Of a stretch of DNA of 35,543 nucleotides, positions 59 to 31,414 are shown piece after piece. Location of the stretch: the IMG/VR virus record IMGVR_UViG_2841629896_000002. One strand, 5' to 3'. A program made the position numbers and the translations under genes. The first letter of the stretch is position 1, and each line of letters starts with the position of its first letter. This DNA is from an uncultured virus (IMG/VR IMGVR_UViG_2841629896_000002) (lineage: Duplodnaviria; Heunggongvirae; Uroviricota; Caudoviricetes). The notes below the pieces were generated by a model. That model was not told where the DNA came from. It ran no database searches and saw only the letters and a list, made by a program, of their open reading frames with translations.

Positions 59-69
59 ATAAGACACGA

Positions 70-3752: not shown

Positions 3753-3851
3753 GTGGATTCTTAAGTGGATTCATATAAAATAATTGCAATCAACATATTG
3801 ACTTTATTGTGTTTTTTATGATAATATCTTTCCAAAGGCGAAATGGTTATG
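3753..3851. other. Putative attR of element 1: arm-type repeats gtggattc x2 (3753, 3765), IHF box aatcaacatattg (3788-3800), core about 3827-3851
   Basis: Positional homology to 23678-23773; exact match to IHF consensus WATCAANNNNTTR. Confidence 0.55.
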
Positions 3852-4443: not shown

Positions 4444-4460
4444 TTTTTAGTTCTCCTTAT

Positions 4461-7659: not shown

Positions 7660-8199
7660 ATGGTAACAGGTTTTTTACACGGTGTTGAAGTCGTCGAGGT
7701 TGACGACGGCACCCGCCCCCTTCGTGCAGTTCAGTCTGGCGTTATCGGAATTATCGGCACAGCACCTGATGCTGATGAACAAGCCTTTCCTCTTAACACA
7801 CCGGTTTTGGTAGCGGGCTCTCTTTCACAAGCCGCAAAACTCGATAAAACGGGTAAGCGTCAAGGTACATTACCCAATGCCCTTGATCTCATTTTCAAGC
7901 AAGTAGGCGCAATTGTCGTTGTCATCCGTGTGCAAGAAGGTGACAACGAAAATGCAACACTCACCAATATTCTAGGTGGTGTAAACGCAAATGGCGCTTA
8001 TGAAGGCGTTCATGCTTTCATTGGAGCACAATCCATTGTAGGACAAACACCACGTATTCTGATTGCTCCAGGCTTTACACATCAGCGCCCTTCCAGCGTT
8101 GGTATTGAAGGGAATGAAACTAGTGCAACTGCCAACCCTGTAGCAGCAGAACTGATTGGCATTGCAGAGCGCCTGCGCGCTATTGTGGTGCTTGATGCT
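7660..8199 (+). CDS. Tail sheath protein (P2 FI-like), 5' part, interrupted
   Basis: FLHGVEVVEV...FPLNTPV...PRILIAPGF; sheath-like sequence ends at AIVVLDA and resumes at 23765. Confidence 0.92.
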
Positions 8200-8214
8200 A
8201 GCAACACATTGATT
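8184..8214. other. attL of element 2: tgtggtgct-tgatgct-agcaacaca plus IHF box (8202-8214)
   Basis: 8/9 inverted arms around a 7-bp spacer; imperfect direct repeat of 23749-23773; reverse-complement aatcaatgtgttg matches the IHF consensus. Confidence 0.8.
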
Positions 8215-8374
8215 TTTATATATAATTTACTGTTTTGCATATTGAATTAAAGCCCCGAATATAGTAAGATTTTCTTATTCTAAACCCTCTCAGATTGAAT
8301 CAATTCATATCACTTGCTTGCACGTCAAAAGCGGGGCTGGTGTGTGGGTAAAATTTATACAAGAAAGGACTAAA

Positions 8375-9541
8375 ATGGCTCTTATGAACCGTCTTAATGC
8401 AAGATCTGTCGCAACATTGGGGGCTGGCAAATATAATGATGGCGCCGGCTTGTTACTTCATAAGCGTAAAGATGGAGGTGTTCAATGGATTTTACGGTAT
8501 ACCCTTCACGGACGCCGTCGTGAAATGGGATTGGGAGCGTTGCGAGATGTCTCTTTAAAAAAAGCACGTGAATTGGCAAACCAATGGCGGGCTGTTTTAC
8601 GTGAGGGGCGTGACCCTATTAAAGAACGCAACAAACAAAAGCGTGAGGCAATGCGCAATCTCCATTACTTAAAAGATATTGCTCTAGATGCTTTTGAAAG
8701 CCGTAAAGCTGAATTAAAGAATGATGGTGAGGCTTGTAATTGGTTTTTACATTTACGCCTCCATATTCTCCCTAAATTAGGCTGTCTACCCGTTTCAGAG
8801 ATTACACAAACAGAGATACGCGATACCCTTGCCCCTATTTGGCATACAAAAGCTGGAACTGCTCGAACAGCACTGATGCGTCTTAATCTTTGTCTCAAAC
8901 ATGCGGCTGCATTAGGGTTAGATGTTGATTTACAAGCAACAACAAAAGCACGCGCTCTTTTAGGCAAACAACGTCATAAAAAACAAAGCTTACCAGCCAT
9001 GGATTGGAGAGATGTGCCGGCTTTTTACCAATTTCTCTGTAAAACAACAACTATAAAACATTTAGCTTTGCGTCTGCTTATTCTGACAGGTGTCCGTACT
9101 AATCCTTTACGTCATATTCATAAAGATCAAGTTGATGGCGATATATGGACTATTCCTGCTGAAAATATGAAAGGAAAGCGTGATGCTACAACAGAGTTTC
9201 GCGTGCCCCTATCATCTGAAGCAATAAAAATAATTGAACAAGCCCGCTGTATCTCTAAAAGTGATTTCATCTTTTCACTTACCGGTCGTGGTCCTCTTTC
9301 ACATACGATGATGGCAGCGTATATGAGAAAAAATAAAATTGAAGCCTGCCCCCATGGTTTTCGCTCTAGTTTACGCGATTGGCTTGCTGAAACAACCGAT
9401 GCCCCCTATGAGGTCGCTGAAACCATTTTAGCTCATACGGTAGGCGGACAAGTAGAGCGTGCCTATCGTCGGACTGACTATTTAGAACAGCGTCGTGTCT
9501 ATATGGATAAATGGGCGGCTTATGTCACTGGTCAATCTTAA
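8375..9541 (+). CDS. int: P4-family tyrosine integrase with arm-binding domain
   Basis: KYNDGAGL..RRREMGLG; LTGVR; HGFRSS; LAH; AYRR. RBS aagga before ATG 8375. Confidence 0.95.
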   Translation: MALMNRLNARSVATLGAGKYNDGAGLLLHKRKDGGVQWILRYTLHGRRREMGLGALRDVSLKKARELANQWRAVLREGRDPIKERNKQKREAMRNLHYLKDIALDAFESRKAELKNDGEACNWFLHLRLHILPKLGCLPVSEITQTEIRDTLAPIWHTKAGTARTALMRLNLCLKHAAALGLDVDLQATTKARALLGKQRHKKQSLPAMDWRDVPAFYQFLCKTTTIKHLALRLLILTGVRTNPLRHIHKDQVDGDIWTIPAENMKGKRDATTEFRVPLSSEAIKIIEQARCISKSDFIFSLTGRGPLSHTMMAAYMRKNKIEACPHGFRSSLRDWLAETTDAPYEVAETILAHTVGGQVERAYRRTDYLEQRRVYMDKWAAYVTGQS

Positions 9542-9544
9542 GAT

Positions 9545-9576
9545 ATGGGGTGCATAACCCCATGATCTGTGGATAA
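9545..9576 (+). promoter_or_regulatory. Hairpin after int plus DnaA-box match (tgtggataa 9568-9576)
   Basis: atgggg...ccccat stem; exact reverse complement of TTATCCACA. Confidence 0.4.
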
Positions 9577-9749
9577 CTTTAGCTCTCTCCTCTCTCATTC
9601 GCTCTCAATAAGACTCATAAATTATCACATGAGAAATTATATGATAAAATATTGTTTTCTATAAATAAAATACCTTCAAAAATAAACCAAAATGTGCTTA
9701 ATAAATAGGCATGATTTGGTTCTATTTTTTATTATGAAAGGATTTTAAA

Positions 9750-9950
9750 ATGACCGAAAATGATATTCTTTTAACAGACCGTGAAAGTGCAAAATTGCTT
9801 CATATGAGTGTCTCAACATTCCGCCGTCATGTCACCAATGGCTCTCTCCCAAAACCTTTAAAATTTGGTTTTTTATCCCGTTGGTTACAATCGGATCTCT
9901 TGAATGTAATCGAGCAAGCGAAACAGCAACGTCAAAGTGACGCGGCATAA
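9750..9950 (+). CDS. AlpA-family regulator / excisionase
   Basis: 66 aa; MSVSTFRRHV..GSLPKPLKFG..SRW. Confidence 0.88.
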   Translation: MTENDILLTDRESAKLLHMSVSTFRRHVTNGSLPKPLKFGFLSRWLQSDLLNVIEQAKQQRQSDAA

Positions 9951-9956
9951 AAAAAA

Positions 9957-9985
9957 CCTTGTCACGTAAGGACGGACAAGGCTTT
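9957..9985 (+). terminator. Hairpin after AlpA
   Basis: ccttgtc...gacaagg followed by cttt. Confidence 0.4.
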
Positions 9986-10048
9986 CTCAAACTCATCACC
10001 TCAGAGATAGCACAATCCGTCCTGTGACGCAACGTTATAGGATTTAAA

Positions 10049-10252
10049 ATGATGTGTTCTTTTAAGAATGCGCGGGGTATTACACGCGCTGTGCCGAGGG
10101 TTTGGCATGGGCGTTATGGAAGCCAACCAATCAAAAAGACTTTAGCTAATTTTACCTTTGCTACGCGTGCTTATAGCCAAGCCTTTGAGGTCCTTATGAG
10201 GCAAGCCCCGCATAACGCATATTTTAACGATCTCCTCTATTTTCTAAGGTAA
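10049..10252 (+). pseudogene. Short ORF, possibly an internally deleted primase remnant
   Basis: RBS agga; sits between AlpA and YfjI where satellites encode primase. No Zn-finger or Toprim motif remains. Confidence 0.3.
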
Positions 10253-10257
10253 ATAAC

Positions 10258-11832
10258 ATGAGACAAGATAACAAAAATATTTTAGAGAATAATACGCCTT
10301 TAAATGATAATACTTGTTTAGAAGCCATTCCTTATAAACAAGCATTGCAACAAAACGGTTGGGGGGAAATAAAGCCTATCACGGCGGCTCTCTTACCCGT
10401 CGAGCCTTTTGACCCATTACAACTCCCAATGCCATTTATGGATTATGTTTATGACGTTTCAGAGCGTCAACAAGCCCCTATGGATTTTATTGCTGTCTCT
10501 GCTCTCTGTGCCTTGGCTGCTGTCATTGGCAATGGCGTGCGGGTTGCCCCAAAACAATATGATGATTGGATTGTGGTGCCTAATCTCTGGGGGGCTCTTA
10601 TTGGTCAATCATCAACATTCAAAACACCAGCCATGAAAGCCGCTTTAACTCCTATCACTTGCCTTCAAAAGAAATGGTATAAAGACTGGTTAAAACAGAA
10701 AGAAAAACAACAAATTGAAGAGAGGTTTGAAACTTTAGACAAACGAGAAAAGGAAAGACAAGCCAATAAAGCAATAAAAAAAGGAGATCTTGAAACAGCC
10801 CGTGCTCTTTTGTCTGAAACCCTCTCTAAAGACAATGTGCATGATGATGATGTCTCTCGTTTTATTGTCAATGATGTGACCGTTGAAAAGCTTGGGGAAC
10901 TCTTAAAAGAAAACCCCCGTGGTCTCTTGATGGTGCGTGATGAACTGGCTGGTTTTTTAGCTAATCTAGAAAGAAAGGAATATCAAACAGACCGTTCCTT
11001 TTATTTAACAGCTTTTAATGGAGATGATCAATTTACCTATGACCGTATAGAGCGTGGAACCATTTTTATCCCTTATGTCACTTTATCCATAATTGGAGGC
11101 ATTCAACCTTCACGCCTTATTCCCCTCATTCAAGCCATACAGCGTGGAATAAACGATGATGGTCTTATGCAACGCTTTCAAATGATTGTCTGGCCCGATG
11201 ACAATAAAGAATGGCAAGTGATTGATAGACCGCCCAATCAAGAGGGCTGGCAAAAGTATGAAGGGGTATTTCGTTCTTTTCGTGATAAACGCTTAGGGTC
11301 TCCAGAAAAGCCGCTGATCATGCGTTTTTCTCCTAAAGCACAAGTGCAATTTTATGAATGGTTGGAACATCTTCATAAAGAGGCAAAAGGAGGTAGTCAC
11401 TCAGAAAGTTTACAATCGCATCTTTTAAAAATGCCTAAGACCATAGCAAGCCTTGCGTTGATTTTTGAACTTCTTGATGGTGGTCGTTTTGAAATTGGAC
11501 CCTATGCCATCACAACAGCCTTGCGTTGGACAAGTTATCTATTAAGTCATGCCAAACGTCTTTATGCGGCGGGGGATAATTTAGCAACAGAGGGGGCAAA
11601 ATTGATTGTCGAGCGTTGTGATCATTTACCCGATGTTTTTACAGCAAGAGATATCTATAGACGCTGTTGGCATTCTTTAAAAGACAAAGAAGTCGTTAAA
11701 CAAGCTATAGAGCTTTTATGCCGTTGTAACTATATTCGTGAATTTCCTATAGAGGGCAATGAATTAGGTCGGCGTCCAGATAGACGTTATGAATGGCACC
11801 CTTTCGTCAAAAACAACAGCATCAAACAATAA
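10258..11832 (+). CDS. YfjI / DUF3987 family replication-associated P-loop protein
   Basis: PNLWGALIGQSSTFKTPA, DVTVEKL, RDELAG, GGIQP, DDGLMQRF; C-terminal GRRP winged-helix-like tail. Confidence 0.88.
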   Translation: MRQDNKNILENNTPLNDNTCLEAIPYKQALQQNGWGEIKPITAALLPVEPFDPLQLPMPFMDYVYDVSERQQAPMDFIAVSALCALAAVIGNGVRVAPKQYDDWIVVPNLWGALIGQSSTFKTPAMKAALTPITCLQKKWYKDWLKQKEKQQIEERFETLDKREKERQANKAIKKGDLETARALLSETLSKDNVHDDDVSRFIVNDVTVEKLGELLKENPRGLLMVRDELAGFLANLERKEYQTDRSFYLTAFNGDDQFTYDRIERGTIFIPYVTLSIIGGIQPSRLIPLIQAIQRGINDDGLMQRFQMIVWPDDNKEWQVIDRPPNQEGWQKYEGVFRSFRDKRLGSPEKPLIMRFSPKAQVQFYEWLEHLHKEAKGGSHSESLQSHLLKMPKTIASLALIFELLDGGRFEIGPYAITTALRWTSYLLSHAKRLYAAGDNLATEGAKLIVERCDHLPDVFTARDIYRRCWHSLKDKEVVKQAIELLCRCNYIREFPIEGNELGRRPDRRYEWHPFVKNNSIKQ

Positions 11833-11944
11833 AGAAATCTTCTTTAAAAACTTTCTACTCAAAGAGACAAAACTCTTTTTAATGGCATTCTTATCAAGGA
11901 ATTTTTCTCCAAAGATAATGATCTAAGTAACTTTATAGGAAGAG

Positions 11945-12150
11945 TTTTGTCATTTTTGTCAGTTCTGTCAGTCCTTTTTAGACCCTATAATTATTTTTTC
12001 AAATGAGTGAAAATTAAAAACATTATTTTTCAATATGTTAGTATTTTTAAGATACAACTTATATCAATGATACAACCTTAAATACAATCAATAATATATA
12101 TTTGTCAGTTATCTGTCAGTAAATTGAACTGACAAAAGTGATTATTTTAT
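11945..12150 (+). repeat. Iteron-like block (tgtcag/ctgaca repeats), left arm of ~200-bp inverted repeat
   Basis: Reverse complement matches 17965-18178, e.g. tgtcagttatctgtcagtaaattgaac. Confidence 0.85.
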
Positions 12151-12439
12151 GCCTTATAAAACCTATCAAAATACTCATTCCGATATCTTAAAGCACATAG
12201 TGCATTTGTCTTGATTAATCCGTGAAACGAATAGCAAATTTTACTACTTTGCTGATCTTACGCTGTGTCATAGGCTGTGGATAAATAGCCTTTAAAAATC
12301 CCTTTTGAAAAAAATTATCCGTTTTTTCGCATTTTTCTGCATTTTTTCTCAATTCGTTCAAAATAGATTTAATAAGCTTCATTTTGATTCTTTTGAAAAG
12401 AATTAACCCTCTCATACCAAAACGGAGCTCTGTTATAAT

Positions 12440-15400
12440 ATGCTGCAATCTCTTAAGTCTGATCATGAACATGTCACGCTACGCTCTCTGTTGGAATATT
12501 ATCGTCAACAAGCAAAATCACCCCGTGAATTGGGAACGCTGTTTGAAAACCTTGTAAAGGTTTATTTAGCTGAAGACCCGTTGCAAAAGCAAGAATACGA
12601 AAAGGTTCAAACTTATTTGGAATGGGCTAAGGAACATGATGAAGATGGGCGTGATATTGGTATTGATTTGGTCGCTACAATCCGTGATCAAGGAGGATAT
12701 GCGGCTATTCAATGTAAATGCTATGATGCTTCTCACATCATTAAAAAAGAAGATATTGATAGCTTTATCGCTGCCTCAGGCAAAAAGATTTTTACGCGTC
12801 GTATTCTCGTTGATAGCACCGAAAGCAATTGGAGTGATAATGCTAACAACACTTGTGATGGTCAAGAAGTTCGTATTCAACAGATTAATCTGTTTGATTT
12901 AGAAAACAGTCAAATCGATTGGGGCGCTTATAAAGAACGAGGACAAGCCGTCCTTAAAGAGCAACCGAAAAAAAAGCTTTTAGATCATCAGATAGAAGCG
13001 CTTGAAAGAGTTTGTGAAGGTTTAAAAGAAGCAGACCGTGGCAAGCTTATTATGGCATGTGGTACGGGTAAAACATTCACCAGTCTTAAGATAGCAGAAA
13101 CCATAGCAGGAAAAGGCAAGCGTGTGTTGTTTTTAGTGCCCTCCCTTGCTTTGATGTCACAAACAATCCGTGAATGGACCCTTGATACAGAAATCCCCTT
13201 GCGTTCCTTTGCGGTGTGTTCGGATACACAAGTAGGCAAACGTCGTAAAAGTAAACAGGATGATGAATCGGGTCTTGATGCATCAGATCTTGTCTTGCCG
13301 GCGACCACGGATTCACAAGAGCTTGCGCGTAAAGCCAATAAGACCTCTCTTGATGTGATGACTGTGGTCTTTTCAACTTATCATTCCATTCAAGTGATTT
13401 CGGATGCACAAAAGGAATATGATTTACCCGAATTTGATCTGATCATTTGTGATGAAGCACACCGTACGACTGGGGTTGTATTGGGAACAGACAAGCATGA
13501 ATCTGAATTTATCAAGGTTCATGATAACAGCATCATACGGGGTAAAAAACGTCTGTATATGACTGCAACGCCTAAGATCTTTGCTGATAGTGCCAAAAAA
13601 CAAGCCCATGAGATGAATGGTATTCTGGCGTCTATGGATGATGAAGCGCTTTATGGAAAAGAGCTTTACACTTACACATTCTCAAAAGCCGTTAAGAATG
13701 AACTCTTAGTTCCTTATAAAATTATTATCTTAGGCGTTAATGAAGAGGAAGTCTGTGAATCCATTCAACATCTGATGACCGATGAGAATTATGAACTTAT
13801 CCTTGATGATAAAACCAAGATCATAGGCTGTTATCAAGCCCTTGCTAAAATAGATCTGAAGGTTGATTTGAGTGATGACCCTAACCCTATGCGTCGGGCT
13901 TTGGCTTTTTGTAAAGATATCAAGACTTCTGAACGTATCCGTGACACATTCAATTCTCAAGAAATACAGAAAGAATTATATAATCTTCATAAGCTCTATA
14001 AAGAGACGCCGCCTCTTCAGTGTACCTTTGCTCATATTGATGGAACGCAAAGTGCCAAGAAGCGCAATGAAGCCCTTGATTGGTTAAAGGAAGATGCGGG
14101 GGAAAATACTTGTCGTGTGCTGACCAATGTAAGATGTCTTTCTGAGGGTGTTGATGTTCCTGCTCTTGATGCGATCATGTTTTTACACCCGCGCAAAAGC
14201 CAAGTGGATGTGATACAGGCGGTGGGGCGTATCATGCGCCGTGCCAAAGGCAAGAAAAGAGGCTATATCATTTTACCCGTTGGGGTGCCGGCTGGGATTT
14301 CTGCTGAAGAAGCTTTAAAATACAACAAGAGATACAGTGTTGTCTGGCAAGTGATCAATGCTTTGCTTGCTCATGATGAGAATTTCGAAATCACCCTTAA
14401 CCAGATGATTTTAGGGCAAGACGTTAGTGATGTTTTGGAGATTAGCGCCTTAAAGAGCATGACAGCGGTTGAGGATAAAATCTATGTTTATGAGAAACCA
14501 GAAAGCGCGGGGCTTGAGATTGGAAAAGCAGCCTATGAACCACAAAAATACATTCATAGTGTTACAGGAAGATTACCCTTTTATAAAGAGTTTCCCAATG
14601 CCCTTAAAACCCTTTTGGCTAAGAAATTTACCCTTGCCGATTACTGGGGCATATGGGCTGGCAATGTTGCTGAAATTGCACAAAACCATATCACCCATCT
14701 TCAAAACCTGCTTGCTGATGAAAACAGTGAAGCCTTTCACGCCTTTGATGCATTTCATAAAGAACTAAAAAACAACTTAAACAGTGAAATAAAACAAGAG
14801 GAAGCGCTTGAGATGTTAGGACAACATCTTGTCACGCGTCCCGTGTTTGAAGCCTTGTTTGAGGGCAATGAATTTGTGCAAAACAATGCCATTTCGCAAG
14901 CCATGGAAAAGATTTTAGCTGAGTTGGATAAAACCAATATCAAGCAAGTATCAAAAGAGTTACAAGAGTTTTATGACAGTGTGAAATTCCGTGCCTCTGG
15001 GATTACCTCCCCCCAAGCAAGACAAAACCTTATTATCAAGCTTTATGAAGATTTTTTTACCAAGGCATTTAAGAAAACCACCGATAGGCTTGGGATTGTT
15101 TATACCCCCGTTGAGGTTGTTGATTTTATCATTCATTCTGTTGATGATGTGTTGCGTAAAGAGTTTGGCAAAAGCTTGGGGTCACGGGGTGTCTCCATTC
15201 TCGACCCTTTCACGGGAACGGGTACCTTTATCACAAGGCTTTTACAATCAGATCTCATCAAACCAGAGGATATGGAATATAAATTCCGTCATGATATCCA
15301 TGCCAATGAGATTGTCTTACTTGCCTATTACATAGCAGCGATTAACATTGAATCGACGTATCATAGTCTGATGAAAGGAGATTATATTCCCTTTAAGCAT

Positions 15401-17347
15401 ATTGGTTTGGCTGATACATTCCGGATGCTTGAAGAAAAGAACCTGCTACAGGAATTATTCAAAGAAAACAGTGAATATTTAGAGCATCAAAAGAAACTGG
15501 ATATCCAAGTTATCTTTGGTAACCCTCCTTATTCGGTAGGTCAAAAAAGCGCTAATGACAATGCAAAAAACACTCCCTATCCCATATTAGATGACCGTAT
15601 CCGTGAAACTTATGCTACTTATTCAACAACAAGTTTATTACAAGCACTTTATGATAGTTATATTCGTGCCATTCGTTGGGCTAGTGACCGTATTAATAAT
15701 GCTGGCGTAATTGGCTTTGTTACAAACGCGGGTTTTATTGATGGAAGTTCTATGGATGGTTTACGCAAGTGCCTCGTTGAGGAATTTAGCAGCCTTTATA
15801 TTTTCCATTTACGGGGCAATCAACGAACGTCTGGAGAACTTTCGCGAAAAGAAGGCGGCAAGATTTTTGGTTCTGGCTCTCGTGCCCCTATAGCGATTTC
15901 TATTTTGGTTAAAAATCCAAATGCACAACCACGTGGTAAGATATATTTTCGGGATATTGGAGATTATCTCAATAGAAAAGAAAAGCTTACGATAATTGAA
16001 AAATTTAGGAGTATTGATGGCATTACACGAAGTAAAAAAGGTTGGCAAATAATTACACCAGATAAACATGGAGATTGGATAAAACAAAGAGAAGCCGATT
16101 TTAATCGGTTTATACCCATGGGTATTAAAAATAACTCGATAGATGCTGCGCTATTTAGGGAAGTGTCACGTGGTGTGAATTCTGCTCGAGATGCTTGGGT
16201 TTATAACTTTTCAAGTAATGCATTAAATTTATCTATTCAAAAAACAATTGAATTTTTTAATATACAAAAACGTCTTATTGCTGAGAATCCATCTGTACCT
16301 ATAAGGAAGATTATTGATTATGATGCTACCAAAATTAGTTGGGCAAATGCTCTTATCTCTAAATTAAAGCAAGGAAGCAACGCAACTTTTGACGTTCATT
16401 TAAAGGTTCCAGTTCTTTATCGCCCGTTTATGATAACATGGCATTATGCATCACCATTACTAAATGAAGCGCTAGGGAAAACTCATCAATTTTTTAATCA
16501 GGATATCCCCCATAACCTTGGAATTTGCATTTCGGGAGAAGGAAGTCAAAAAGCTTTTTCTTGTCTCATGACAAATAAGCCTATTAGTTTTGACACATTA
16601 GAAAAATCAAGATGCTATCCGTTTATGCTCTATTGTGAAGAAAAAAAACATCATGACCATAGCTTATTTATGACAAATGAAAAAAAGAAAATTCGTGATG
16701 GCATTACAGATGCGGGATTAGCACGTTTTAAAGTTGCTTATCCTAATGAAACTATAACAAAAGAAGATATCTTTTATTATGTTTACGGTCTACTTCATTC
16801 AGAAGATTATCGCGCCCGTTATGCACATAATTTATGCAAAGAATTGCCTCGTATTCCTTGTGTTAAAAGTGCTAGTGATTTTTGGAAATTTGTAACAGCA
16901 GGACGTGAATTGGGTCATTTGCATGTGAATTATGAAGATGTAGAACCTTATCCAGTAACCTTTAAAAAGGGTAATCCAAAACAGACAGAGATCTCTAATC
17001 CCGAAAAATTCTATTATGTGACCGAAATGAAATTCGCAAAAGCAGGTAAAGAGAAAGATAAAACCACTGTTATTTATAATAGCAATATCACAATAACAGA
17101 TATCCCTCTTGAAGCTTATAAGTATATCGTCAATGGTAAACCCGCTCTTGAATGGGTTATGGGACGTCAATGTGTAAAGACGGATCAAAAGAGTGGCATT
17201 GTGAATGATGCCAATCGCTATGCTGTTGAAACCGTTGGCAACCCCGCCTACCCTCTAGAGTTATTTCAAAGGGTTATTACCGTAAGTTTAGAAACAATGA
17301 AAATCGTAAAAAACTTACCAAAATTAGAAATAAGAGAAACTGAATAA
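12440..17347 (+). CDS. Type ISP restriction-modification enzyme (LlaGI/LlaBIII-like)
   Basis: Mrr-like GIDL...IQCK, SF2 helicase (MACGTGKT, DEAH, TAT, QAVGRIMR), adenine MTase (DPFTGTG, GNPPY), TRD and ISP-type C-terminus in one 1635-aa chain. Confidence 0.93.
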   Translation: MLQSLKSDHEHVTLRSLLEYYRQQAKSPRELGTLFENLVKVYLAEDPLQKQEYEKVQTYLEWAKEHDEDGRDIGIDLVATIRDQGGYAAIQCKCYDASHIIKKEDIDSFIAASGKKIFTRRILVDSTESNWSDNANNTCDGQEVRIQQINLFDLENSQIDWGAYKERGQAVLKEQPKKKLLDHQIEALERVCEGLKEADRGKLIMACGTGKTFTSLKIAETIAGKGKRVLFLVPSLALMSQTIREWTLDTEIPLRSFAVCSDTQVGKRRKSKQDDESGLDASDLVLPATTDSQELARKANKTSLDVMTVVFSTYHSIQVISDAQKEYDLPEFDLIICDEAHRTTGVVLGTDKHESEFIKVHDNSIIRGKKRLYMTATPKIFADSAKKQAHEMNGILASMDDEALYGKELYTYTFSKAVKNELLVPYKIIILGVNEEEVCESIQHLMTDENYELILDDKTKIIGCYQALAKIDLKVDLSDDPNPMRRALAFCKDIKTSERIRDTFNSQEIQKELYNLHKLYKETPPLQCTFAHIDGTQSAKKRNEALDWLKEDAGENTCRVLTNVRCLSEGVDVPALDAIMFLHPRKSQVDVIQAVGRIMRRAKGKKRGYIILPVGVPAGISAEEALKYNKRYSVVWQVINALLAHDENFEITLNQMILGQDVSDVLEISALKSMTAVEDKIYVYEKPESAGLEIGKAAYEPQKYIHSVTGRLPFYKEFPNALKTLLAKKFTLADYWGIWAGNVAEIAQNHITHLQNLLADENSEAFHAFDAFHKELKNNLNSEIKQEEALEMLGQHLVTRPVFEALFEGNEFVQNNAISQAMEKILAELDKTNIKQVSKELQEFYDSVKFRASGITSPQARQNLIIKLYEDFFTKAFKKTTDRLGIVYTPVEVVDFIIHSVDDVLRKEFGKSLGSRGVSILDPFTGTGTFITRLLQSDLIKPEDMEYKFRHDIHANEIVLLAYYIAAINIESTYHSLMKGDYIPFKHIGLADTFRMLEEKNLLQELFKENSEYLEHQKKLDIQVIFGNPPYSVGQKSANDNAKNTPYPILDDRIRETYATYSTTSLLQALYDSYIRAIRWASDRINNAGVIGFVTNAGFIDGSSMDGLRKCLVEEFSSLYIFHLRGNQRTSGELSRKEGGKIFGSGSRAPIAISILVKNPNAQPRGKIYFRDIGDYLNRKEKLTIIEKFRSIDGITRSKKGWQIITPDKHGDWIKQREADFNRFIPMGIKNNSIDAALFREVSRGVNSARDAWVYNFSSNALNLSIQKTIEFFNIQKRLIAENPSVPIRKIIDYDATKISWANALISKLKQGSNATFDVHLKVPVLYRPFMITWHYASPLLNEALGKTHQFFNQDIPHNLGICISGEGSQKAFSCLMTNKPISFDTLEKSRCYPFMLYCEEKKHHDHSLFMTNEKKKIRDGITDAGLARFKVAYPNETITKEDIFYYVYGLLHSEDYRARYAHNLCKELPRIPCVKSASDFWKFVTAGRELGHLHVNYEDVEPYPVTFKKGNPKQTEISNPEKFYYVTEMKFAKAGKEKDKTTVIYNSNITITDIPLEAYKYIVNGKPALEWVMGRQCVKTDQKSGIVNDANRYAVETVGNPAYPLELFQRVITVSLETMKIVKNLPKLEIRETE

Positions 17348-17387
17348 CTTATAAAGCATGCTCACATAATGGGTATTATAAACGCAT

Positions 17388-17426
17388 AAGGGGTATAGGG
17401 TCTTATAACAGTCTATACCCCCTTTA
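17388..17426 (+). terminator. Hairpin after Type ISP gene
   Basis: ggggtatag...ctatacccc followed by ttt. Confidence 0.5.
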
Positions 17427-17964
17427 TACATTGCTTACATACAATCTTTAAAAGGATAATTTATCATGCGTTATTCTAAAAAGAAATCATTTGCACTTTT
17501 AGATACTCTACTTTGGATTGCTTTAAGACTTTTAAGAAATCCACTCTTAAAGTGAATTAGATTTTTTTACATTGCCTTTAAGAGGTTATACCGTAATCTA
17601 AAATGAGTGCTTTATTGTTTTCAAAAGCTTTGTTTAAAGAGAGTTATATATATTCATTTTCTTATATTACTTATAGGTTTTGTAGGTTCTTACCCCCCCC
17701 CCAAAACCCCTACAAAACCCCTTTTTATATATATCATAGATTGTATTCACAGATTGTATTTAATATAGGTTGTTTCTTTAAAACATTAACATATTGAAAT
17801 ATAATGATTTTTATTTCTAATTAAAAAATAAAATAATACGTACAAAAGCACCCCCAAAACTCATAACCTAATGATCTTGATAGCATTTCTTATGAGTTAC
17901 AAGCTATCTTTTGAAGGTTTTAAAAGGTCATACGCTTTTCATAAGACACGTTTTAATGACTTAC

Positions 17965-18178
17965 TAAAATAATCCAATTTGTCGGTTCAATTTACTGACA
18001 GATAACTGACAAGTTTTAATCAATTCACATCATGGGTTATCTTTAAAGATTGTATTTTTGATATGGGTTGTGTTTTAAAGACATTAACATATTGAAATAT
18101 AATGTTTTTAATTTTTACTCATTTAAAAAAAATAATAGAGGGTCTAAAAAGAACTGACACAACTGACAACACTGACAC
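17965..18178 (-). repeat. Iteron-like block, right arm of inverted repeat
   Basis: actgaca repeated at both ends of an AT-rich spacer; inverse of 11945-12150. Confidence 0.85.
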
Positions 18179-18694
18179 GGTCTATTAAAAAGTATTTTTC
18201 TGATCTCTATAATTATCAGTTTCTCTTTAAATGTTTTCATAACAGTCTATAAATCGTAATTATCCTATTTATCGTTTCTCTTATGAAAATGAAAAATGAT
18301 GCGGTGGCTATAAAGAACATAACAGTTATAAAGAATGCGTAAAAACAGCAAGGTTTTATAATCATAATGCAAATGAAAGGGTTGGTTATAAGAGCGCGGT
18401 GCCTATTAAGATAGTGCAAATGATAAATGCGTTATAAACAAAATTCACAAAAAAATTAAAATTCATTTAGTAAAAAAATTTATAGGTTATAAAGATAAAA
18501 ATACGCATTATGAGAGCGTTTCTAAATATTATAAATGTATAGATTCAAAAAACAACGCAATCGTTTGATAAAGCCTATAATATAGCTTTAAATGCATATA
18601 AATATAAAAGAAGCACTTCATAAGCATAGGATATTATCAATACACAACGTATCTAAAAAAATACAAAAAAATATCAAAAAAGATATAATATTAA

Positions 18695-18723
18695 TTGACA
18701 ATAAATACGTATTTTGTTATATA
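18695..18723 (+). promoter_or_regulatory. Sigma70-type promoter for c4-like leader / LbH array with palindromic operator
   Basis: ttgaca-17 bp-tatata; palindrome aaatacgtattt (18703-18714) in the spacer. Confidence 0.6.
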
Positions 18724-18837
18724 AATACTCAAGTGATTAAAAACCACGAAGCAAACAGCGGATAGGTTACGAAACAGCCTCTCCCATTCTTTAAAATACT
18801 GACTTTCTTTTATGCTATCATTGGCATATAACGATTT

Positions 18838-18922
18838 TGTCGGGTGTGCTTATACCATACAATACCCTTTCGAGGGAAAAGTATAAGCAACGGACTGTTT
18901 GCCGTGTTTTTAGCACCCGATG
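18838..18922 (+). ncRNA. c4/CI-like antisense RNA, copy 2 (satellite-borne)
   Basis: Stem gtcgggtg...cacccgat. ctgtttgc and gtgtttttag are complementary to 18738-18758 and 18941-18960. Confidence 0.65.
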
Positions 18923-18969
18923 CCTTTATGGGCTGTCAATTAAAAACATTATTCAAACAGGATTTAAAT

Positions 18970-19767
18970 ATGACAAATATTTCAAAAATTACCCCCGTTA
19001 ATAAGAAAAAAACATCTAAAAAATACGAATTTACAGATGAAACGCGTGTATTTGGTAATCATACTCTTTATCGCATTAAAGCATTAAAAGACTTTGCTGA
19101 TGTTAAAGCGGGGGATCTAGGCGGCTTTATTAAAGATGAGAGTGATCTGTCTCATGATGGCAATTGCTGGGTTTATGATGATGCTATGGTTATCCAAGCA
19201 AGCGTTTCCGAAAATGCCAAAATACGCAATAATGCCTGTGTTTTGAATTATGCTAGGGTTTATGGTAATGCCGTGATTAGTGATAAGGCATGGGTTTTGA
19301 GTGATAAAGCACGTGTTTATGACAATGCAATCATTAATGGCAATGCAAAAATTGGGGGCTATGTTTTTGGCAATGCCGTTGTGAGTGATAATGCCGTTAT
19401 TACAGAGGGGGCTCTTATTTACGATAACGCCCGTGTTTATGAAAATGCTCATGTGAGTGGGCTTGTGTTTAATGATGCCCATGTCTACGGTAAATCACGC
19501 CTTGCTACGTGGTCAAAAGCTTATGGGAATGCTCATGTTTTTGATAAGGCTATAGTTTATGGCGGTAGCAATATTTATGATAATGCCAAGGTTTCTGGCT
19601 CGGCGCGTGTTGGTCCCTTTGCAAACATTCATGATAATGCGCATGTTTATGGCAAGGCACAAATTTGCCAATTTACAACGATTTATGGCAATGCGGTGCT
19701 TAATGAAAATAAGAAATTTTCTGAAGATGTCTGTAGTGCTGATCAGGCTATAAATAACGCTGCGTAA
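18970..19767 (+). CDS. Hexapeptide-repeat (LbH) protein 1 of array 2
   Basis: Conserved head plus hexapeptides; ATG 18970 after RBS agga. Confidence 0.85.
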   Translation: MTNISKITPVNKKKTSKKYEFTDETRVFGNHTLYRIKALKDFADVKAGDLGGFIKDESDLSHDGNCWVYDDAMVIQASVSENAKIRNNACVLNYARVYGNAVISDKAWVLSDKARVYDNAIINGNAKIGGYVFGNAVVSDNAVITEGALIYDNARVYENAHVSGLVFNDAHVYGKSRLATWSKAYGNAHVFDKAIVYGGSNIYDNAKVSGSARVGPFANIHDNAHVYGKAQICQFTTIYGNAVLNENKKFSEDVCSADQAINNAA

Positions 19768-19849
19768 ATAATGGCGCGGGCGCGGCGGGGGCGCCCCTCT
19801 TTAACCATCTCATTTTAAAATTTAAATCTTTTTATAAAGGAATTGTGCT

Positions 19850-20533
19850 ATGCAAAAGAAGTTTGCACTCACAAATGAGACACGTGTATTTAATCATAAA
19901 ACTCTTTATCGCATTAAAGCATTAAAAGACTTTTCTGATGTTAAAGCTGGTCAATTGGGCGGCTTTATTGAAAGTGAAAACAATCTCTCTCATGATGGCA
20001 ACTGCTGGGTATATGATAATGCTCTTGTTTTAAATCCAGCCCATATTTATGAAAATGCCAAGGTTTTTAATAACGCTATTATAATGGGTACTGTTTATGG
20101 CAATGCTCATATCTGTGATCGCGCCCGCGTTTATGCAAATGCTCATGTTTATGACAATGCGCATCTTTCTAATAATGCTTGGGTCTGTGGGCGGGTTTAT
20201 GGCAATGCAAAATTATCAGGAAATGCGCGTATTTATGGCAATGCCGTGGTTTATGATCATGCTGTTATCAGTGGTGCTGCTAAAATTTATGGCAAGGTTT
20301 ATGGCAAGGCTAGCGTGGGTGGGTATACTCAAGTCTACGGTTCTGTTTATGGCAATGCGAAAGTGACTGGTTATCACACCATTAGAGGTTTGGTGCATGG
20401 CAATGCAAGGTTAAAAAGAGATGGTTATTCATATGTCAAACAAAACTTTTACTATGCATATGGGATTCCTGAAGATTGTGAAATTTATGAAAATGATACC
20501 GTTGTAAAGATTAGTGAAAGTAACGCTGCTTAA
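19850..20533 (+). CDS. Hexapeptide-repeat (LbH) protein 2 of array 2
   Basis: Same head motif, YGNA repeats. Confidence 0.85.
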   Translation: MQKKFALTNETRVFNHKTLYRIKALKDFSDVKAGQLGGFIESENNLSHDGNCWVYDNALVLNPAHIYENAKVFNNAIIMGTVYGNAHICDRARVYANAHVYDNAHLSNNAWVCGRVYGNAKLSGNARIYGNAVVYDHAVISGAAKIYGKVYGKASVGGYTQVYGSVYGNAKVTGYHTIRGLVHGNARLKRDGYSYVKQNFYYAYGIPEDCEIYENDTVVKISESNAA

Positions 20534-20612
20534 ATAACGTGCGAGCGCGGCGGGGGCGCCCCCTTTAAAAATCTCATTTTAAAATTTAATCTTCTTATAA
20601 AGGAATTGTGTT

Positions 20613-21143
20613 ATGCAAAAAAAGTTCGCACTCACAAATGAAACGCGTGTATTGGGTAATCATACCCTTTATCGTATCCAAGCATTAAAAGACTTTTCTG
20701 ATGTTAAAGCTGGTGCCTTGGGGGGCTTTATTGAAAGTGAAAGCAACCTCTCTCATGATGGAAATTGCTGGGTCTATGATGATGCCATTGTATTTAAAAA
20801 TGGTCATGTTTATGAAAATGCAAGGGTTTATAACAATGCTATCGTGGCTGGTTATATCTATGGGAATGCCCATGTGTATGGCAAGGCTGCTGTTTCTAAT
20901 AATTCCCATGTCTATGGTAATGCTCATGTCTATGGCAATGCTATTATTTATGATAATGCCTATATTTATGACAATGCTAGGGTTTATGAATACGCTCGTA
21001 TAGCAAATGACGTGCATATTTTTGAAAATGCTCATATCCATGGCATTGCTGTTATTCGTGAAAATGTCGGCGGGTCTACTAAAATAAAAACCTATACTGA
21101 ACGTCTCTCTCCTTATGGCGAGTTAGAAATTGTCTGGGTTTAA
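20613..21143 (+). CDS. Hexapeptide-repeat (LbH) protein 3 of array 2
   Basis: Same head motif, YGNA repeats, distinct C-terminus. Confidence 0.85.
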   Translation: MQKKFALTNETRVLGNHTLYRIQALKDFSDVKAGALGGFIESESNLSHDGNCWVYDDAIVFKNGHVYENARVYNNAIVAGYIYGNAHVYGKAAVSNNSHVYGNAHVYGNAIIYDNAYIYDNARVYEYARIANDVHIFENAHIHGIAVIRENVGGSTKIKTYTERLSPYGELEIVWV

Positions 21144-21249
21144 TCAATAAAGCAGCGGCGGGCGTTGTGGGGGCGCTTGCTTTCAAACCAAATTTTTCCA
21201 TTCCAAATTTTAGAAAACGTTTAACACATTAGATTGTGAGGGTACCCCT

Positions 21250-22029
21250 ATGTGTAAAAAATACGAATTAACCAATCAAATTAAACAAATTAAAGAGAGA
21301 CTTACTAAGCAAATTATAAACCTTTATCGCATTCGGGCTTTAAGGGATTTTGATGATGTCAAGGCGGGTGCTTTAGGTGGTTTTATTGAAAAGGAAGTCA
21401 ACCTATCCCATGATGGCAATTGCTGGGTCTATGATGATGCTTGTGTCTATGGTCATGCCCGTGTTTATGATGATGCAAAAATACGCCATTATTCGCAAGT
21501 CTGTGGTCTGGTTTATGGCAATGCTGAAGTCTATAGTAAGGCTTTTATCTCTCAATATGCAAAGATTTATGATCAGGCTTGTGTTTATGGGAGTGCTCAT
21601 GTGTATGGCAATGTTTATGGCAATGCTCATGTGAGTGGTGCTGCCCGCGTTCTTGCTGATGCTCATATTTATGACCATGCGCATGTTTCTTATGATGCTA
21701 CGGTTTTTAGTTATGCCCGCGTCTATGGTCATGCTAGGGTTTGTGGCTCTGCTTGCATTTATAGCCATGCGAAAATTTATAATTATGCTGTGATTAATGG
21801 TCGTGCAAAGATTTATGGCAAGGTCTATGGCAATGCGCGCGTGGGGGGCTCTTGTGAGATTTATGGCTCTGTTTATGGTAATGCAAAAATCTCACATTGT
21901 GCAACGATCTGGGGGCGTGCTTATGGCAATGCAACAATCAACACAAAAAGCAAAGCAAAGTTAGTTCCTAAAAATTATGAGGTTTATCAAAGCGATAATG
22001 TCGTTAAGATTATTGATAAAACAGAATAA
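21250..22029 (+). CDS. Hexapeptide-repeat (LbH) protein 4 of array 2
   Basis: Near-identical to 1404-2183 beyond about residue 22. Confidence 0.85.
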   Translation: MCKKYELTNQIKQIKERLTKQIINLYRIRALRDFDDVKAGALGGFIEKEVNLSHDGNCWVYDDACVYGHARVYDDAKIRHYSQVCGLVYGNAEVYSKAFISQYAKIYDQACVYGSAHVYGNVYGNAHVSGAARVLADAHIYDHAHVSYDATVFSYARVYGHARVCGSACIYSHAKIYNYAVINGRAKIYGKVYGNARVGGSCEIYGSVYGNAKISHCATIWGRAYGNATINTKSKAKLVPKNYEVYQSDNVVKIIDKTE

Positions 22030-23748
22030 AAATAGGTATGGGGGTGCCTTCTTTATGGCTATAAACCCATCATAAAAGAGAGAATTCATAAAAGAAAGCC
22101 GTGCCAACTGATATGACGCGGCTTTCTAATGTCTATCCTTATGAATCAACCCTAATCAAGGTAATGACACATATATACAAAACATATCTATTACAAGCGC
22201 TCTATTAGAGATATGAAAACTTATCAAAAGGAACGTAAATGATGTATATGATCTTTAATCACTCACTTGAATGAGAGAGCCTATAAGCGCTTTTTGTTAC
22301 TCTCAAACGTATTAATCATAACACCCTCCTTTGTGAGGGGGGTTTTTAAAACAAAGCCCATGATCACAATGCTTCTTTTAAAACGTTTCAATAGACTGAC
22401 CTTAAAATTGAGTTGAGTGAATTGAGTAAAATTGAAACAACTTACATTCTAAAAATCAAAACGCTTTTTAGATTCATCTCAATACAATCAAAAGAAAATG
22501 CATCTTAAATGAATGTCTTATAAAAACGTTCTTTTTACATTTGCAAACGCTGGTTTTTAAAACAAGCTCTCATAAGATAAATAAACAACCGCTTTTATCA
22601 AATGGAAGGTTTTAAAAACTATTATAAACATTAGTTTCAAACGTTTAAACGTTCATTTAGAAAGGCTCTCATAAGCGTATTTTCACTTTTCATTAAATGT
22701 AACTTTTTACAAATAAGCTGGCTCAATTTTGAGTTGGCAAAATCAACCAGCTCAAATTCGAACTCGTTATCTTTAGAATAGAGTATTCTTTAATATTATA
22801 GCTCTTATCTAAAAATTTAGAAAAATCTCATGCCTTATGATGTTACAACGGTTTTGAATTTTACTTGCTTATCTTTGTCTAAAATAGATGCCCTCAAATT
22901 TGAGGAGACCTCTTTTGGTTTCATATTTTAAAACGATAACTTTTAAAACGTTTTTTATACCTGTCTAAGGTATATAGTATTCTACTTCTATGGCATTATG
23001 CGCCTCCATTTTTTTAGGGAAGCGAATATAGTTCTGTTCTTCAAAACTAGCCTGCAATCTATTCATTAAAAGGCTTTTCATTTCATAAGATATAAAAGAC
23101 CTCTTTATCGTTTTCTAAACTTTTAGAAAGCGTTTAAAAGCGATCTTATCCTTAATCCTTTTATGCAATCTTTATAAATTAAACCTATAAGCTTATGACA
23201 GTTTCAAACAGTTAATTTCTTTAATGCCATTTTAAAGGTTTTTCCCAATTGGGGAAAAATTATATGATCTGTATTTTCTATAAATGCGTATCTTTTGATA
23301 CAATTTACCTTATAACAGTTTCAAACGATTACCCTCTTATAGAATGATCTAATATTGCTATAACACTCTTTAGATTTTGCGCTCGCCAATTTTGGCGAAC
23401 GTTAATATGCGATTAACAATCCAATCTTTAAAACAAGCTGTGATCTTTAAACGTATGTTATCGATAATTCCAAACGACTAAATTTTTAAACAATGCGATT
23501 TGTGCTGTGATAAAAACGTATCATAAAATTTATGAACTGTTATGAATGATATCTGCTTTTCATTTCATTTGAACGTTTACATGCGTTATAATATTTGCAC
23601 CATGATTTGCTTTTTATGATCTATTCATACATGGCAATCTTCTATAAAAAATGGTCAAATGAATCACGTATAAAAGTGTGGATTCCTAAGTGGATTCATA
23701 TAAAATAATTTTACATAATATATTGATTTTTCTATATTTTATATAATA
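22030..23748. repeat. ~1.7-kb ORF-free tail, direct repeat of 2184-3826
   Basis: Long identical tracts, e.g. gcaatctattcattaaaaggcttttcatttcataagatataaaa. Confidence 0.85.
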
Positions 23749-23773
23749 TGTGGCGCCGGGTGCTCCAAACACA
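23678..23773. other. attR of element 2: gtggattc x2 (23678, 23690), IHF box (23716-23728), core tgtggcgcc-gggtgct-ccaaacaca
   Basis: Imperfect repeat of attL; sheath frame resumes at 23765. Confidence 0.8.
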
Positions 23774-24436
23774 ACAGATGAAGCAGCCCTTAGCACAGCA
23801 AAGGATTTTGATTCAAAACGCGCTATTCTCATTGACCCGTTTGTAAAGATAAATCGTGATGGCAAAATCATAGAACAGCCCGCGAGTGCAGTGGTTGCTG
23901 GTGTCATTGCCAAAAATGATTTTACTCATGGCTTTTGGCATTCCCCTTCTAATAAAGTGATCAATGGAATTGTGGGAACTGCGCGCCCCATTGATTTTTC
24001 CATTGGTGACAGATCAAGCCGTGCCAACCTTCTCAATGAACAAAACATCACAACCATTATTCGCGAAAATGGCTATCGTCTCTGGGGCAATCGCACACTC
24101 TCAAGCGATACAAAATTTGCTTTTTTATCCGTGGTGCGCACCGCAGATATGATCAATGATGCTATTTTGCGCGGACACCTATGGGCTGTCGACCGCAATA
24201 TCAAAAAAACGTACATGCATGATGTGAGTGAAAGCGTCAATGCTTATTTGCGTGATTTGAAAGCACAAGGCGCTATTCTTGGTGGGCGCTGTACGCCTGA
24301 TCTAGAGCTTAATACAGCAAGCGCCATTGAAAGCGGCAGAGTCTATTTCAATGTGGAATTTACCCCGACAACACCCGCAGAACACATCACGTTCCGTTCA
24401 CAAATCATCAATGATTACCTAGAGGAGATCTTTTAA
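23765..24436 (+). CDS. Tail sheath protein, 3' part
   Basis: PNTTDEAA...GFWHSPSN...GYRLWGNRT...GAILGG...PAEHITF. Confidence 0.92.
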   Translation, partial: PNTTDEAALSTAKDFDSKRAILIDPFVKINRDGKIIEQPASAVVAGVIAKNDFTHGFWHSPSNKVINGIVGTARPIDFSIGDRSSRANLLNEQNITTIIRENGYRLWGNRTLSSDTKFAFLSVVRTADMINDAILRGHLWAVDRNIKKTYMHDVSESVNAYLRDLKAQGAILGGRCTPDLELNTASAIESGRVYFNVEFTPTTPAEHITFRSQIINDYLEEIF

Positions 24437-30767: not shown

Positions 30768-31079
30768 TTAAACGTGTGGAACCGGTCGTTCAAGAGGTTG
30801 TACAGCCAAACGCAACCCCATGGTATGCAGTAACGCATTTAGGCTACGGAACTCTGGATTGCCTTTTTCTGAAAGTGTACGATAAAGTTGCGTAGGATTC
30901 AATTTGGCTGCTTTGGCTACAGCTTGAACACCACCATAGGCTTTTGCCATTTGACGAAGTGTTACAAGCAGTTCCCCCTGGTCACCATCTGCTAGGATTG
31001 CATCAAGGGTCGCTGCTGCTACTTCAGGGTCATTATGGAATATTTCTGCCATTGCATCATCATGGCTACGATCTTTCAT
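30768..31079 (-). CDS. Addiction-module antidote (HTH antitoxin)
   Basis: LRQMAKAYGG...QLYRTLSEKGNP...MGLRL. Confidence 0.88.
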   Translation of the reverse strand: MKDRSHDDAMAEIFHNDPEVAAATLDAILADGDQGELLVTLRQMAKAYGGVQAVAKAAKLNPTQLYRTLSEKGNPEFRSLNALLHTMGLRLAVQPLERPVPHV

Positions 31080-31090
31080 CTTTGCACTCC

Positions 31091-31414
31091 TTAATCTTCA
31101 CGGTTTTGCCAATCGTACCAACAAGCACATGCACGAGTGATATCGGTGTTTTGTGTTTTTTTGGTACCACCGCATAATAACAATAATACAGTCTTTCCAG
31201 ACTGAGCATAATAAATTCGGTAACCAGGACCAATATTCATACGCAGTTCATAGACACCATCACGAAGCGGCTTGAAATCGCCAAAATTTCCTTGCTCTAA
31301 ACGATTAAGACGGCGAATAATTGCAGTTTTAGCCTGCACATCACGGAGCTTTCGCAGCCAATCAGCTATCAAGTCTTTGCCATCAGAGGTAAGGTAGTGA
31401 CGTATTTCAAACAT
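31091..31414 (-). CDS. Addiction-module killer (RelE/ParE-family toxin)
   Basis: GNFGDFKPLRDGVYELR..GPGYRIYY...LLLCGG.K..Q..DI. Confidence 0.9.
   Translation of the reverse strand: MFEIRHYLTSDGKDLIADWLRKLRDVQAKTAIIRRLNRLEQGNFGDFKPLRDGVYELRMNIGPGYRIYYAQSGKTVLLLLCGGTKKTQNTDITRACACWYDWQNRED

Follow-up and report, generated by a model that had tools for sequence, protein, structure and literature searches.

Why should a small, phage-like element carry a row of related and yet different beta-helix proteins, and what might such proteins do? The question is raised by a stretch of 35,543 nucleotides recorded in IMG/VR as the uncultured Caudoviricetes virus IMGVR_UViG_2841629896_000002 (hereafter the window), in which four tandem open reading frames (ORFs) on the plus strand occupy positions 18970-22029 and encode proteins of 265, 227, 176 and 259 aa. 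The first-pass annotation, made from the letters of the DNA, had described them as cassette-like arrays of variable beta-helix proteins and as the signature cargo of a satellite. We found the variable solenoid arrays to be real, and well above chance. As tandem paralogues the genes belong to the YdcK-type beta-solenoid family, and their nearest protein relatives all come from Bartonella species. Two further conclusions look firm: the family is a mobile-element-borne, non-structural multigene family of YdcK type, and in Bartonella the array and a Type ISP restriction-modification enzyme together make up a conserved module of an integrated island.

The first gene of the array (18970-19767) gives 265 aa when read from its ATG and 307 aa when read from a GTG at 18844, and it matched PF18836 with an E-value of 3e-20 and PHROG 5070 with 3e-73. 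The second (19850-20533, 227 aa) and third genes (20613-21143, 176 aa) matched PF18836 and PHROG profiles as well; for the second gene the structure 2f9c in the Protein Data Bank was matched with E 1e-21, and the third was modelled with AlphaFold2 (AF2) and searched with Foldseek. The terminal gene (21250-22029, 259 aa, PF18836) is kept across islands and species, with orthologues in 77 Bartonella loci at identities of up to 95% (B. tribocorum). A second array on the plus strand opens the window. Positions 1-58 hold the 3' end of its first gene, a 213-aa ORF which begins outside the window (C1 1696428-1697069, C1 and C2 being sequences of this 2.28-Mb genome) and which matched a hidden Markov model (HMM) of the head shared by these proteins. 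It is followed by a gene for 387 aa at 143-1306 (PF18836, E 5e-19) and by a terminal gene at 1404-2183 (259 aa; the ORF is open from 1314, which would give 289 aa). The ORFs, the head HMM and PF18836 matches in 6/6 complete proteins bear out the original count of four genes at 18970-22029 and of two complete genes plus a partial one at 1-2183. The gene at 143-1306 had been taken for a two-unit fusion. We confirmed two heads, at residues 1-56 and 172-227; the fusion is not confined to this locus, as orthologues of 386-387 aa occur in six loci of other Bartonella, and therefore it is not a local accident.

For the two terminal genes (21250-22029 and 1404-2183) we observed 87% identity in the head and 97% in the body, whereas the upstream members differ, with a mean body identity of 48% over 276 pairs (heads: 71%). 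Near-identical terminal genes behind differing upstream members, as reported in the first pass, are thus a true feature of the arrays. The similarity continues beyond the genes: the ∼1.7 kb downstream of each of the two are about 90% identical to each other. On the left this AT-rich non-coding tail spans 2184-3827 (about 90% identical to 22030-23749), and window positions 1-3827 represent the array and tail of another, rearranged island copy.

In order to place the proteins in a family we compared their scores with the thresholds of the respective models. PF18836 (YdcK beta solenoid repeat) has a gathering cut-off of 30 bits and matched all six complete proteins with 34.6-70.6 bits (E 1e-8 to 3e-20). 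The top NCBIfam match was NF040481 (YdcK_fam) with 89-188 bits, under the equivalog cut-off of 350, and the nearest solved structure by sequence was Salmonella YdcK (2f9c/2pig, phmmer E 1e-21). Judged by these scores, the array proteins are relatives and not orthologues of the enterobacterial YdcK. Direct homologues are found in PHROG 5070, 7964 and 20149 (E down to 1e-129), and PHROG 5070 and 7964 have no annotated function. An origin of PF18836 in the work on polyvalent proteins is unsupported by the main text of that paper (PMC5512222), which makes no mention of YdcK, solenoid or hexapeptide.

All array proteins share a head of ∼56 aa followed by solenoid turns of 17-18 residues. In the head alignment 28 of 58 columns are invariant, in agreement with the earlier description of a common head followed by variable hexapeptide repeats. 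Across the 728 in-phase hexapeptides of the genome's 39 paralogues we obtained the consensus [V/I]-[Y/S/F]-[G/D]-[N/D]-A-x, with conserved positions 1 and 5 and the greatest variability at position 6. The AF2 model of the 176-aa protein reached a pLDDT (the model's own per-residue confidence) of 86 and predicts that residues 1-150 form a regular solenoid, followed by a disordered tail. Its top four Foldseek matches were 2pig/2f9c (E 4e-8 to 4e-6), with low TM-scores due to register shifts. Searches of the protein Atlas and of the BFVD viral library returned members of the same unnamed phage family only.

The genes form an operon-like array with conserved spacers, each of which carries a ribosome-binding site. 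The spacer at 19768-19849 consists of a short GC-rich stem followed by the ribosome-binding site, and an alignment identified spacers of the same kind at 20534-20612, 21144-21249, 59-142 and 1307-1403, so that the spacers of the arrays can be described as homologous units of 80-110 nt. The folding of the stems did not exceed the level of shuffled sequences and we therefore dropped the idea that the spacers are structured recombination sites or strong terminators. The term cassette-like remains apt for tandem paralogues only. Gene cassettes of the integron type were considered and rejected: the integrase of the island is of the phage type with an Arm-binding domain, the spacers are homologous units bearing ribosome-binding sites, and their stems fold at shuffle level.

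Upstream of the array an AT-rich leader (17348-18969, GC content 0.28-0.31) separates it from the Type ISP gene, and on reading the sequence we saw no convincing ORF in it. By eye we noticed two copies of a ∼60-nt direct repeat in the leader at 17740-18200, near 17750 and 18050, as well as CTGACA motifs clustered near 17990-18010 and 18150-18180; the repeats and motifs may be regulator sites or iterons. Downstream, the AT-rich tail of the island (22030-23748) has no ORF of more than 49 aa and is conserved in paralogous islands and in other species. A terminator scan detected a terminator-like hairpin at 22325-22342. Promoter-like sites were not in excess across 17300-23800 (32 compared to a shuffle mean of 32.7), and Rfam gave no match in the window at the gathering threshold. 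RNA-library contigs from two studies cover the array ORFs at 90-99% likeness and give a weak hint that the arrays are expressed. The same contigs leave 17367-18468 and 22326-22876 uncovered, for which a real gap and strain divergence are both possible.

We then asked how far this arrangement extends beyond the window. The module consists of the Type ISP enzyme, a leader of ∼1.5 kb, two to five YdcK-type genes and a tail of 1.7 kb, and the long arrays end the module. Using the terminal gene as the query we retrieved 77 related loci, among which 28 arrays had at least 3.5 kb of upstream sequence and could be tested. In 25 of these 28 arrays from other Bartonella the 3' end of a Type ISP gene lies 1.0-1.9 kb upstream, a count that holds for arrays of the type found with this query. 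In the genome studied here a long array stands behind 4/6 Type ISP genes (five Type_ISP_C matches and one Type ISP gene truncated after residue 861). The complete arrays contained two genes in six cases, three in 14, four in four and five in two. Across the genus the number of Type ISP C-terminal domains ranges from 0 to 21 per genome. The numbers of heads and of Type ISP domains per genome are correlated (rho 0.76, n = 61, relatedness ignored): 39 genomes have both, six only heads, nine only Type ISP and seven neither.

The family is not restricted to the islands. In this genome the head HMM detected 39 genes, which carry 40 heads and fall into about 13 arrays, and 44 of 60 other Bartonella genomes had between 1 and 106 matches each; in rodent Bartonella the copies number in the dozens. 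Of the 39 genes 18 belong to island arrays, 15 to five tightly packed short arrays of three genes and five to two long arrays next to replication genes of prophages, and one is on a plasmid. The short arrays occupy prophage early operons, in which the order is CI-type repressor, AntA, Rha/ANT, three YdcK genes, ERF or RecT, YqaJ and integrase. The same prophage layout, there with 4-6 heads, was found in a second species, in a Bartonella genome that has no Type ISP gene. The plasmid gene (C2 19614-20342) is located between genes for a helix-turn-helix (HTH) regulator and a ParA-like protein, about 1.8 kb from the nikA-relaxase genes; C2, 41 kb long, is a conjugative plasmid on which a MobA/VirD2 relaxase, NikA and ParA are encoded together with VirB8/9/10-like genes. 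The label of a satellite's signature cargo thus holds in so far as the array is a conserved part of the island and follows a Type ISP gene in 25/28 testable loci. It is too narrow, however, because only 18 of the 39 genes are in islands, with 20 in or beside prophage early regions and one on the plasmid, and because one genome with 44 heads has no Type ISP.

As a separate observation, we noticed paired long arrays at C1 761.1-768.3 kb and 975.1-982.5 kb which are convergent and 2.3-2.6 kb apart. In each pair one array stands behind DUF1376 replication genes of a prophage, and its partner is part of a Type ISP island. Inverted homologous pairs of this kind could mediate inversions.

The comparison of arrays across Bartonella loci confirmed that the repertoire is variable, with two to five genes, indels of whole turns and mosaic heads and bodies. 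Paralogous islands carry arrays that are related yet different. In two gene pairs the bodies are 96-99% identical, whereas the first ∼40 residues have diverged much further. The synonymous divergence (dS) of head and body differed ten-fold in both pairs (0.76 vs 0.075 and 0.61 vs 0.055), and we therefore place recombination break-points inside the head. In two pairs the members differ by in-frame indels, one of 34 and one of 16 residues, with repeated turn sequences on either side; the indel of 34 aa separates the gene at 19850-20533 from its paralogue. It looks firm that the arrays diversify through homologous recombination, with exchanges between heads and between spacers, and through slippage of turns. 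The ratio of non-synonymous to synonymous divergence (dN/dS) was 0.08-0.6 in 11/11 pairs, so the genes are maintained; the constraint is looser for the bodies than for the heads. These ratios indicate purifying selection on the array genes.

The family is also widespread outside Bartonella. With tblastn we found it in 83 phage records, including gp229 of the S. thermophilus phage Sfi18 (E 4e-30), and the hosts of the matching phages are Firmicutes, Proteobacteria, Actinobacteria and Bacteroidota. For eight records, hand-picked across hosts from the 83, we looked at the genomic position. In 8/8 it belongs to the early, replication or recombination region and in 0/8 to the structural module; in 4/8 it is within two genes of a single-strand annealing protein (SSAP) or recombinase. 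In Sfi19 the order is cro, orf229, Gam-like, Sak4, and an AcrIIA6 gene is located 1.3 kb upstream. In a Mannheimia phage RecT and an exonuclease precede the YdcK-type gene, in Javan318 the gene is followed by Erf, in LfeInf it is two genes away from RecA, and in Liberibacter phage SC1 it lies between the repressor and Bro-N/primase. Phages of Xanthomonas, Vibrio and Mycobacterium carry it amid early or replication genes. Some phages have multiple copies (LfeInf at five places, KLEB27-3 at four). The head alone recovered 10,437 cluster representatives from a library of 1.84 billion proteins clustered at 50% identity, many of them with 2-4 heads. The extra parts of 22 long relatives are mostly further YdcK units. 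Two of these relatives, P0155 and P0146, are rare fusions of head and solenoid, one with the ADP-ribosyltransferase of polyvalent proteins (ART-PolyVal) and one with an N-terminal XRE-type HTH.

What could proteins with this distribution do? We favour the reading that they are non-enzymatic early binders which neutralise a nuclease or defence enzyme of the host or of a rival element, and we put its probability at roughly 0.4. The proteins would be cytoplasmic rods that mobile elements produce early. With outer faces that are variable and rich in Tyr they would bind and neutralise a DNA-processing enzyme, for which a restriction enzyme or an end-processing helicase-nuclease would be candidates, and incoming or replicating DNA of the element would thereby be protected. 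The array would then serve as a repertoire against several variants of the target. The early placement beside SSAP, exonuclease and Gam genes is consistent with this, as are the presence in virulent phages and on a plasmid near the relaxase, the one ART-PolyVal fusion and the physical tie to a translocating restriction enzyme. A more specific form of the proposal, which we consider rather improbable, is that the arrays are inhibitor or modulator repertoires against translocating helicase-nucleases, in Bartonella the diverged Type ISP enzymes of rival islands. The arrays of prophages, plasmids and islands would enable the DNA of each to survive in the Type ISP-armed cells that it enters, and the island's own array would temper its own enzyme during establishment.

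Several points weigh against neutralisation of a nuclease or defence enzyme. A literature search found no functional study of any YdcK-type protein, and the mechanism is proposed from gene neighbourhood. We looked for positive selection in the 11 pairs and did not find it, with dN/dS never above 1. The isoelectric points range from 4.6 to 9.1, a spread too wide for uniformly acidic DNA mimics, and a reading as such mimics was rejected. An inhibitor beside the enzyme of its own island needs an extra assumption, such as restriction alleviation during establishment. Furthermore, the tie to Type ISP is not obligatory: six genomes (one of them with 44 heads) have heads only and nine have Type ISP only, and the correlation between the two may reflect only the total load of mobile elements. 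In E. coli and Salmonella YdcK is chromosomal. Finally, PADLOC-DB 2.0 contained no family that matched the five YdcK-type proteins searched.

This last result also counts against a first competitor, namely that the array is defence or helper-interference cargo which acts with or beside the Type ISP enzyme and blocks phages or the helper. A restriction enzyme precedes the array in 25/28 related loci, the island lies inside a prophage tail gene, variable arrays would suit an arms race, and integrase and DUF3987 form a core as in the defence-carrying PICMI satellites described by Barcia-Cruz et al. (PMC10803314). However, homologues reside in the early regions of the virulent phages Sfi19 and LfeInf and of large Bacillus phages, where host defence is implausible, and the prophage copies belong to the induced early operon downstream of the antirepressor, which is not the typical position of a moron expressed in the lysogen. 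We regard a defensive role as possible but doubtful. Position also matters for the idea that the proteins are rods of a bactofilin-like polymer or scaffold which organise replication or recombination of the element, or that they block host division in the manner of Kil. In lambdoid phages kil and gam are located next to the SSAP and exonuclease genes, and the neighbourhood of SSAP and exonuclease genes observed here corresponds to that place; some phage homologues have the NCBI name 'polymer-forming cytoskeletal protein', and Bactofilin (PF04519) gave weak matches with E 1e-5 to 6e-3. All of these matches scored 17.2-25.5 bits, though, below the cut-off of 27.9, the nearest fold is YdcK and not bactofilin, and 3-5 diverged copies per array are unexpected for a single polymer, which leaves this explanation improbable.

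The two remaining explanations take the beta-helix itself as their starting point. As enzymes of the left-handed beta-helix (LbH) type the proteins could be acyl- or acetyltransferases that act on a sugar, lipid or nucleotide, and Hexapep (PF00132) exceeded its cut-off of 27 bits in 2/6 proteins. Models and structures of LpxD, GlmU and PglD were weakly matched, and some database records name relatives LpxD or 'transferase'. Yet the named acyltransferase models of NCBIfam all scored 18-53 bits compared to cut-offs of 150-725, and Foldseek gave E 0.02 or worse for true transferases as opposed to 4e-8 for YdcK. LbH enzymes form their active sites with loop insertions, and the turns of the array proteins appear to be uninterrupted by such loops. 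The gene contexts are early and recombination modules of phages rather than sugar or lipid pathways. The proteins are thus not ordinary acyltransferases, which is in keeping with the first-pass annotation, and an acyltransferase role, to which we assign a very low probability, is unsupported. That annotation had further suggested alternative parts of the tail tip or receptor-binding apparatus. Beta-helices are common in tailspikes, the island lies amid prophage tail genes, and variability would fit a spike or receptor-binding module that is swapped for host range. Against this, every phage context examined (8/8 phages and five Bartonella prophage loci) has the gene in an early or recombination region rather than in the tail module. 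Further copies are found on a plasmid and in an island that lacks structural genes, and neither a signal peptide nor an adaptor domain is apparent in the proteins. The mass spectrometry of B. grahamii phage particles, as reported in the main text of PMC2697382, names other proteins only. A tail-tip role is unlikely because of these early positions, and we give a part in the virion of any kind hardly any credence.

The element that carries the array is a 15.5-kb island (8202-23749) which splits the tail sheath gene of a P2-like prophage. The N-terminal fragment of the sheath gene (7660-8250, plus strand) covers positions 19-240 of the 496 in PHROG 23 and is 95% identical to an intact copy (C1 704543-705091); the C-terminal fragment (23750-24436, plus strand) matched Phage_sheath_1 and Phage_sheath_1C and covers PHROG 23 positions 238-470. 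A second prophage copy at C1 about 698.6-706.5 kb has an intact sheath gene and tail genes that are 99.7% identical. From the overlap of the junctions on the intact gene we located attL at 8184-8208 and attR at 23749-23773, which form an imperfect direct repeat of 25 bp, with the intact attB at C1 704543. All genes of the island are on the plus strand: a tyrosine integrase (8318-9541; Arm-DNA-bind_3, Phage_int_M, Phage_integrase), a small HTH protein of 66 aa, possibly of AlpA/excisionase type (9750-9950; HTH_17 PF12728, 22.5 bits with E 1.4e-4, the cut-off being 27), a DUF3987 protein resembling the primase/helicase-like replication proteins of islands (10258-11832; PF13148, 269 bits; PHROG 2373, DNA helicase) and the LlaGI-like Type ISP enzyme, a single polypeptide of 1635 aa (12440-17347; Mrr_cat_2, ResIII, ISP_coupler, N6_Mtase, Type_ISP_C; 2051 bits in PADLOC). 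These are followed by the 1.6-kb leader, the four-gene array and the 1.7-kb tail, and the array is the last coding part of the island. The absence of capsid and terminase genes reported for the element was confirmed among the Pfam matches in 8202-23749. The satellite nature of the island is unproven; by sequence, its integrase and DUF3987 gene resemble the PICMI core, and the AlpA-type match is below the cut-off.

A number of further observations concern the surroundings of the island. The 5' end of its integrase gene together with the preceding 115 bp matched about 30 places in C1 at 68-87%; many of these alignments begin exactly at window position 8202-8203 and most represent integrase fragments. 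Islands are nested or rearranged across C1 1660.7-1700.8 kb, to the left of and into window positions 1-3827. There a plus-strand island whose Type ISP gene breaks off at residue 861 borders on the tail of a complete island in inverted orientation, and the integrase end of the latter adjoins the array that opens the window. Toxin-antitoxin modules accompany the prophage genes at 4156-4739, 5839-6090 and 30768-31414 and comprise HigB paired with an HTH antitoxin, an antitoxin of the Phd/YefM type and a pair of the Gp49/HI1420 type.

The significance of the family lies in its breadth: the head domain defines about 10,400 clusters at 50% identity in phages of four host phyla, and no member has a known function. 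If the proposal of inhibitors directed at translocating helicase-nucleases were true, this family of ∼10,000 clusters of early phage genes would represent a novel class, general in nature, of proteins directed against restriction or nucleases, with a tunable solenoid as their scaffold. Bartonella offers a rich natural experiment, with 1-106 copies per genome, three contexts, mosaic recombination, length changes by whole turns and the link to Type ISP. Inhibition of a nuclease or defence enzyme can be tested by a few co-expression assays, and the answer has a bearing on the part that mobile elements play in shaping the genomes of Bartonella as host-adapted pathogens.

Compared to known systems, the array proteins share the N-terminal cap and the turns of 17-18 residues with YdcK (2F9C, 2PIG; PF18836; NF040481). 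YdcK, however, is a protein of 326 aa encoded by a single chromosomal gene, whereas the Bartonella proteins have 176-387 aa and are encoded in tandem arrays on mobile elements. Sfi18 gp229 and Sfi19 orf229 (PHROG 5070/7964/20149) are direct homologues and, as in Bartonella prophages, early genes adjoining recombination genes; most phages have one copy, in contrast to the 39 copies, the arrays and the restriction-enzyme island of the genome studied here. Barcia-Cruz et al. (2024, PMC10803314) define the PICMI satellites by the co-location of an integrase with AlpA (PF05930 or PF12728) and a primase (DUF3987 or DUF5906). The island is similar in that an integrase, a small, putative HTH_17-type protein and DUF3987 are followed by accessory or defence cargo with no packaging genes. 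It differs in that PICMI are about 6 kb long and lie beside fis, while the island has 15.5 kb and sits in a prophage sheath gene; its AlpA-type match, HTH_17 with 22.5 bits, is below the threshold of 27. The Type ISP enzyme has the full architecture of LlaGI and LlaBIII (Mrr, helicase, coupler, methyltransferase and Type_ISP_C). Described Type ISP systems have no conserved YdcK-type array downstream. The only literature that turned up on Type ISP in Bartonella was Smith et al. (2009, PMC2790908), whose text mentions 'twelve LlaGI-like sequences' in B. tribocorum, and the range of 0-21 copies per genome extends that report of multiple copies.

The closest precedent comes from Berglund et al. 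(2009, PMC2697382), who mention in one sentence a gene with 29 copies in B. grahamii that is similar to phage Sfi18. Because Sfi18 gp229 is among our tblastn matches, that gene is a member of the YdcK family, and the expansion of the family in Bartonella has thus been in print since 2009. The part of the paper that concerns these clusters places them in the 'fha-repeat' and gives no family, structure, linkage to Type ISP, mosaicism or function. What we add for the same family and genus is the distinction of two conserved genomic contexts (early operons of prophages for the short arrays, positions downstream of Type ISP genes for the long ones), the module of Type ISP enzyme, array and tail which is kept across species, a testable hypothesis of nuclease inhibition, and the mosaic, whole-turn mode in which the proteins vary.

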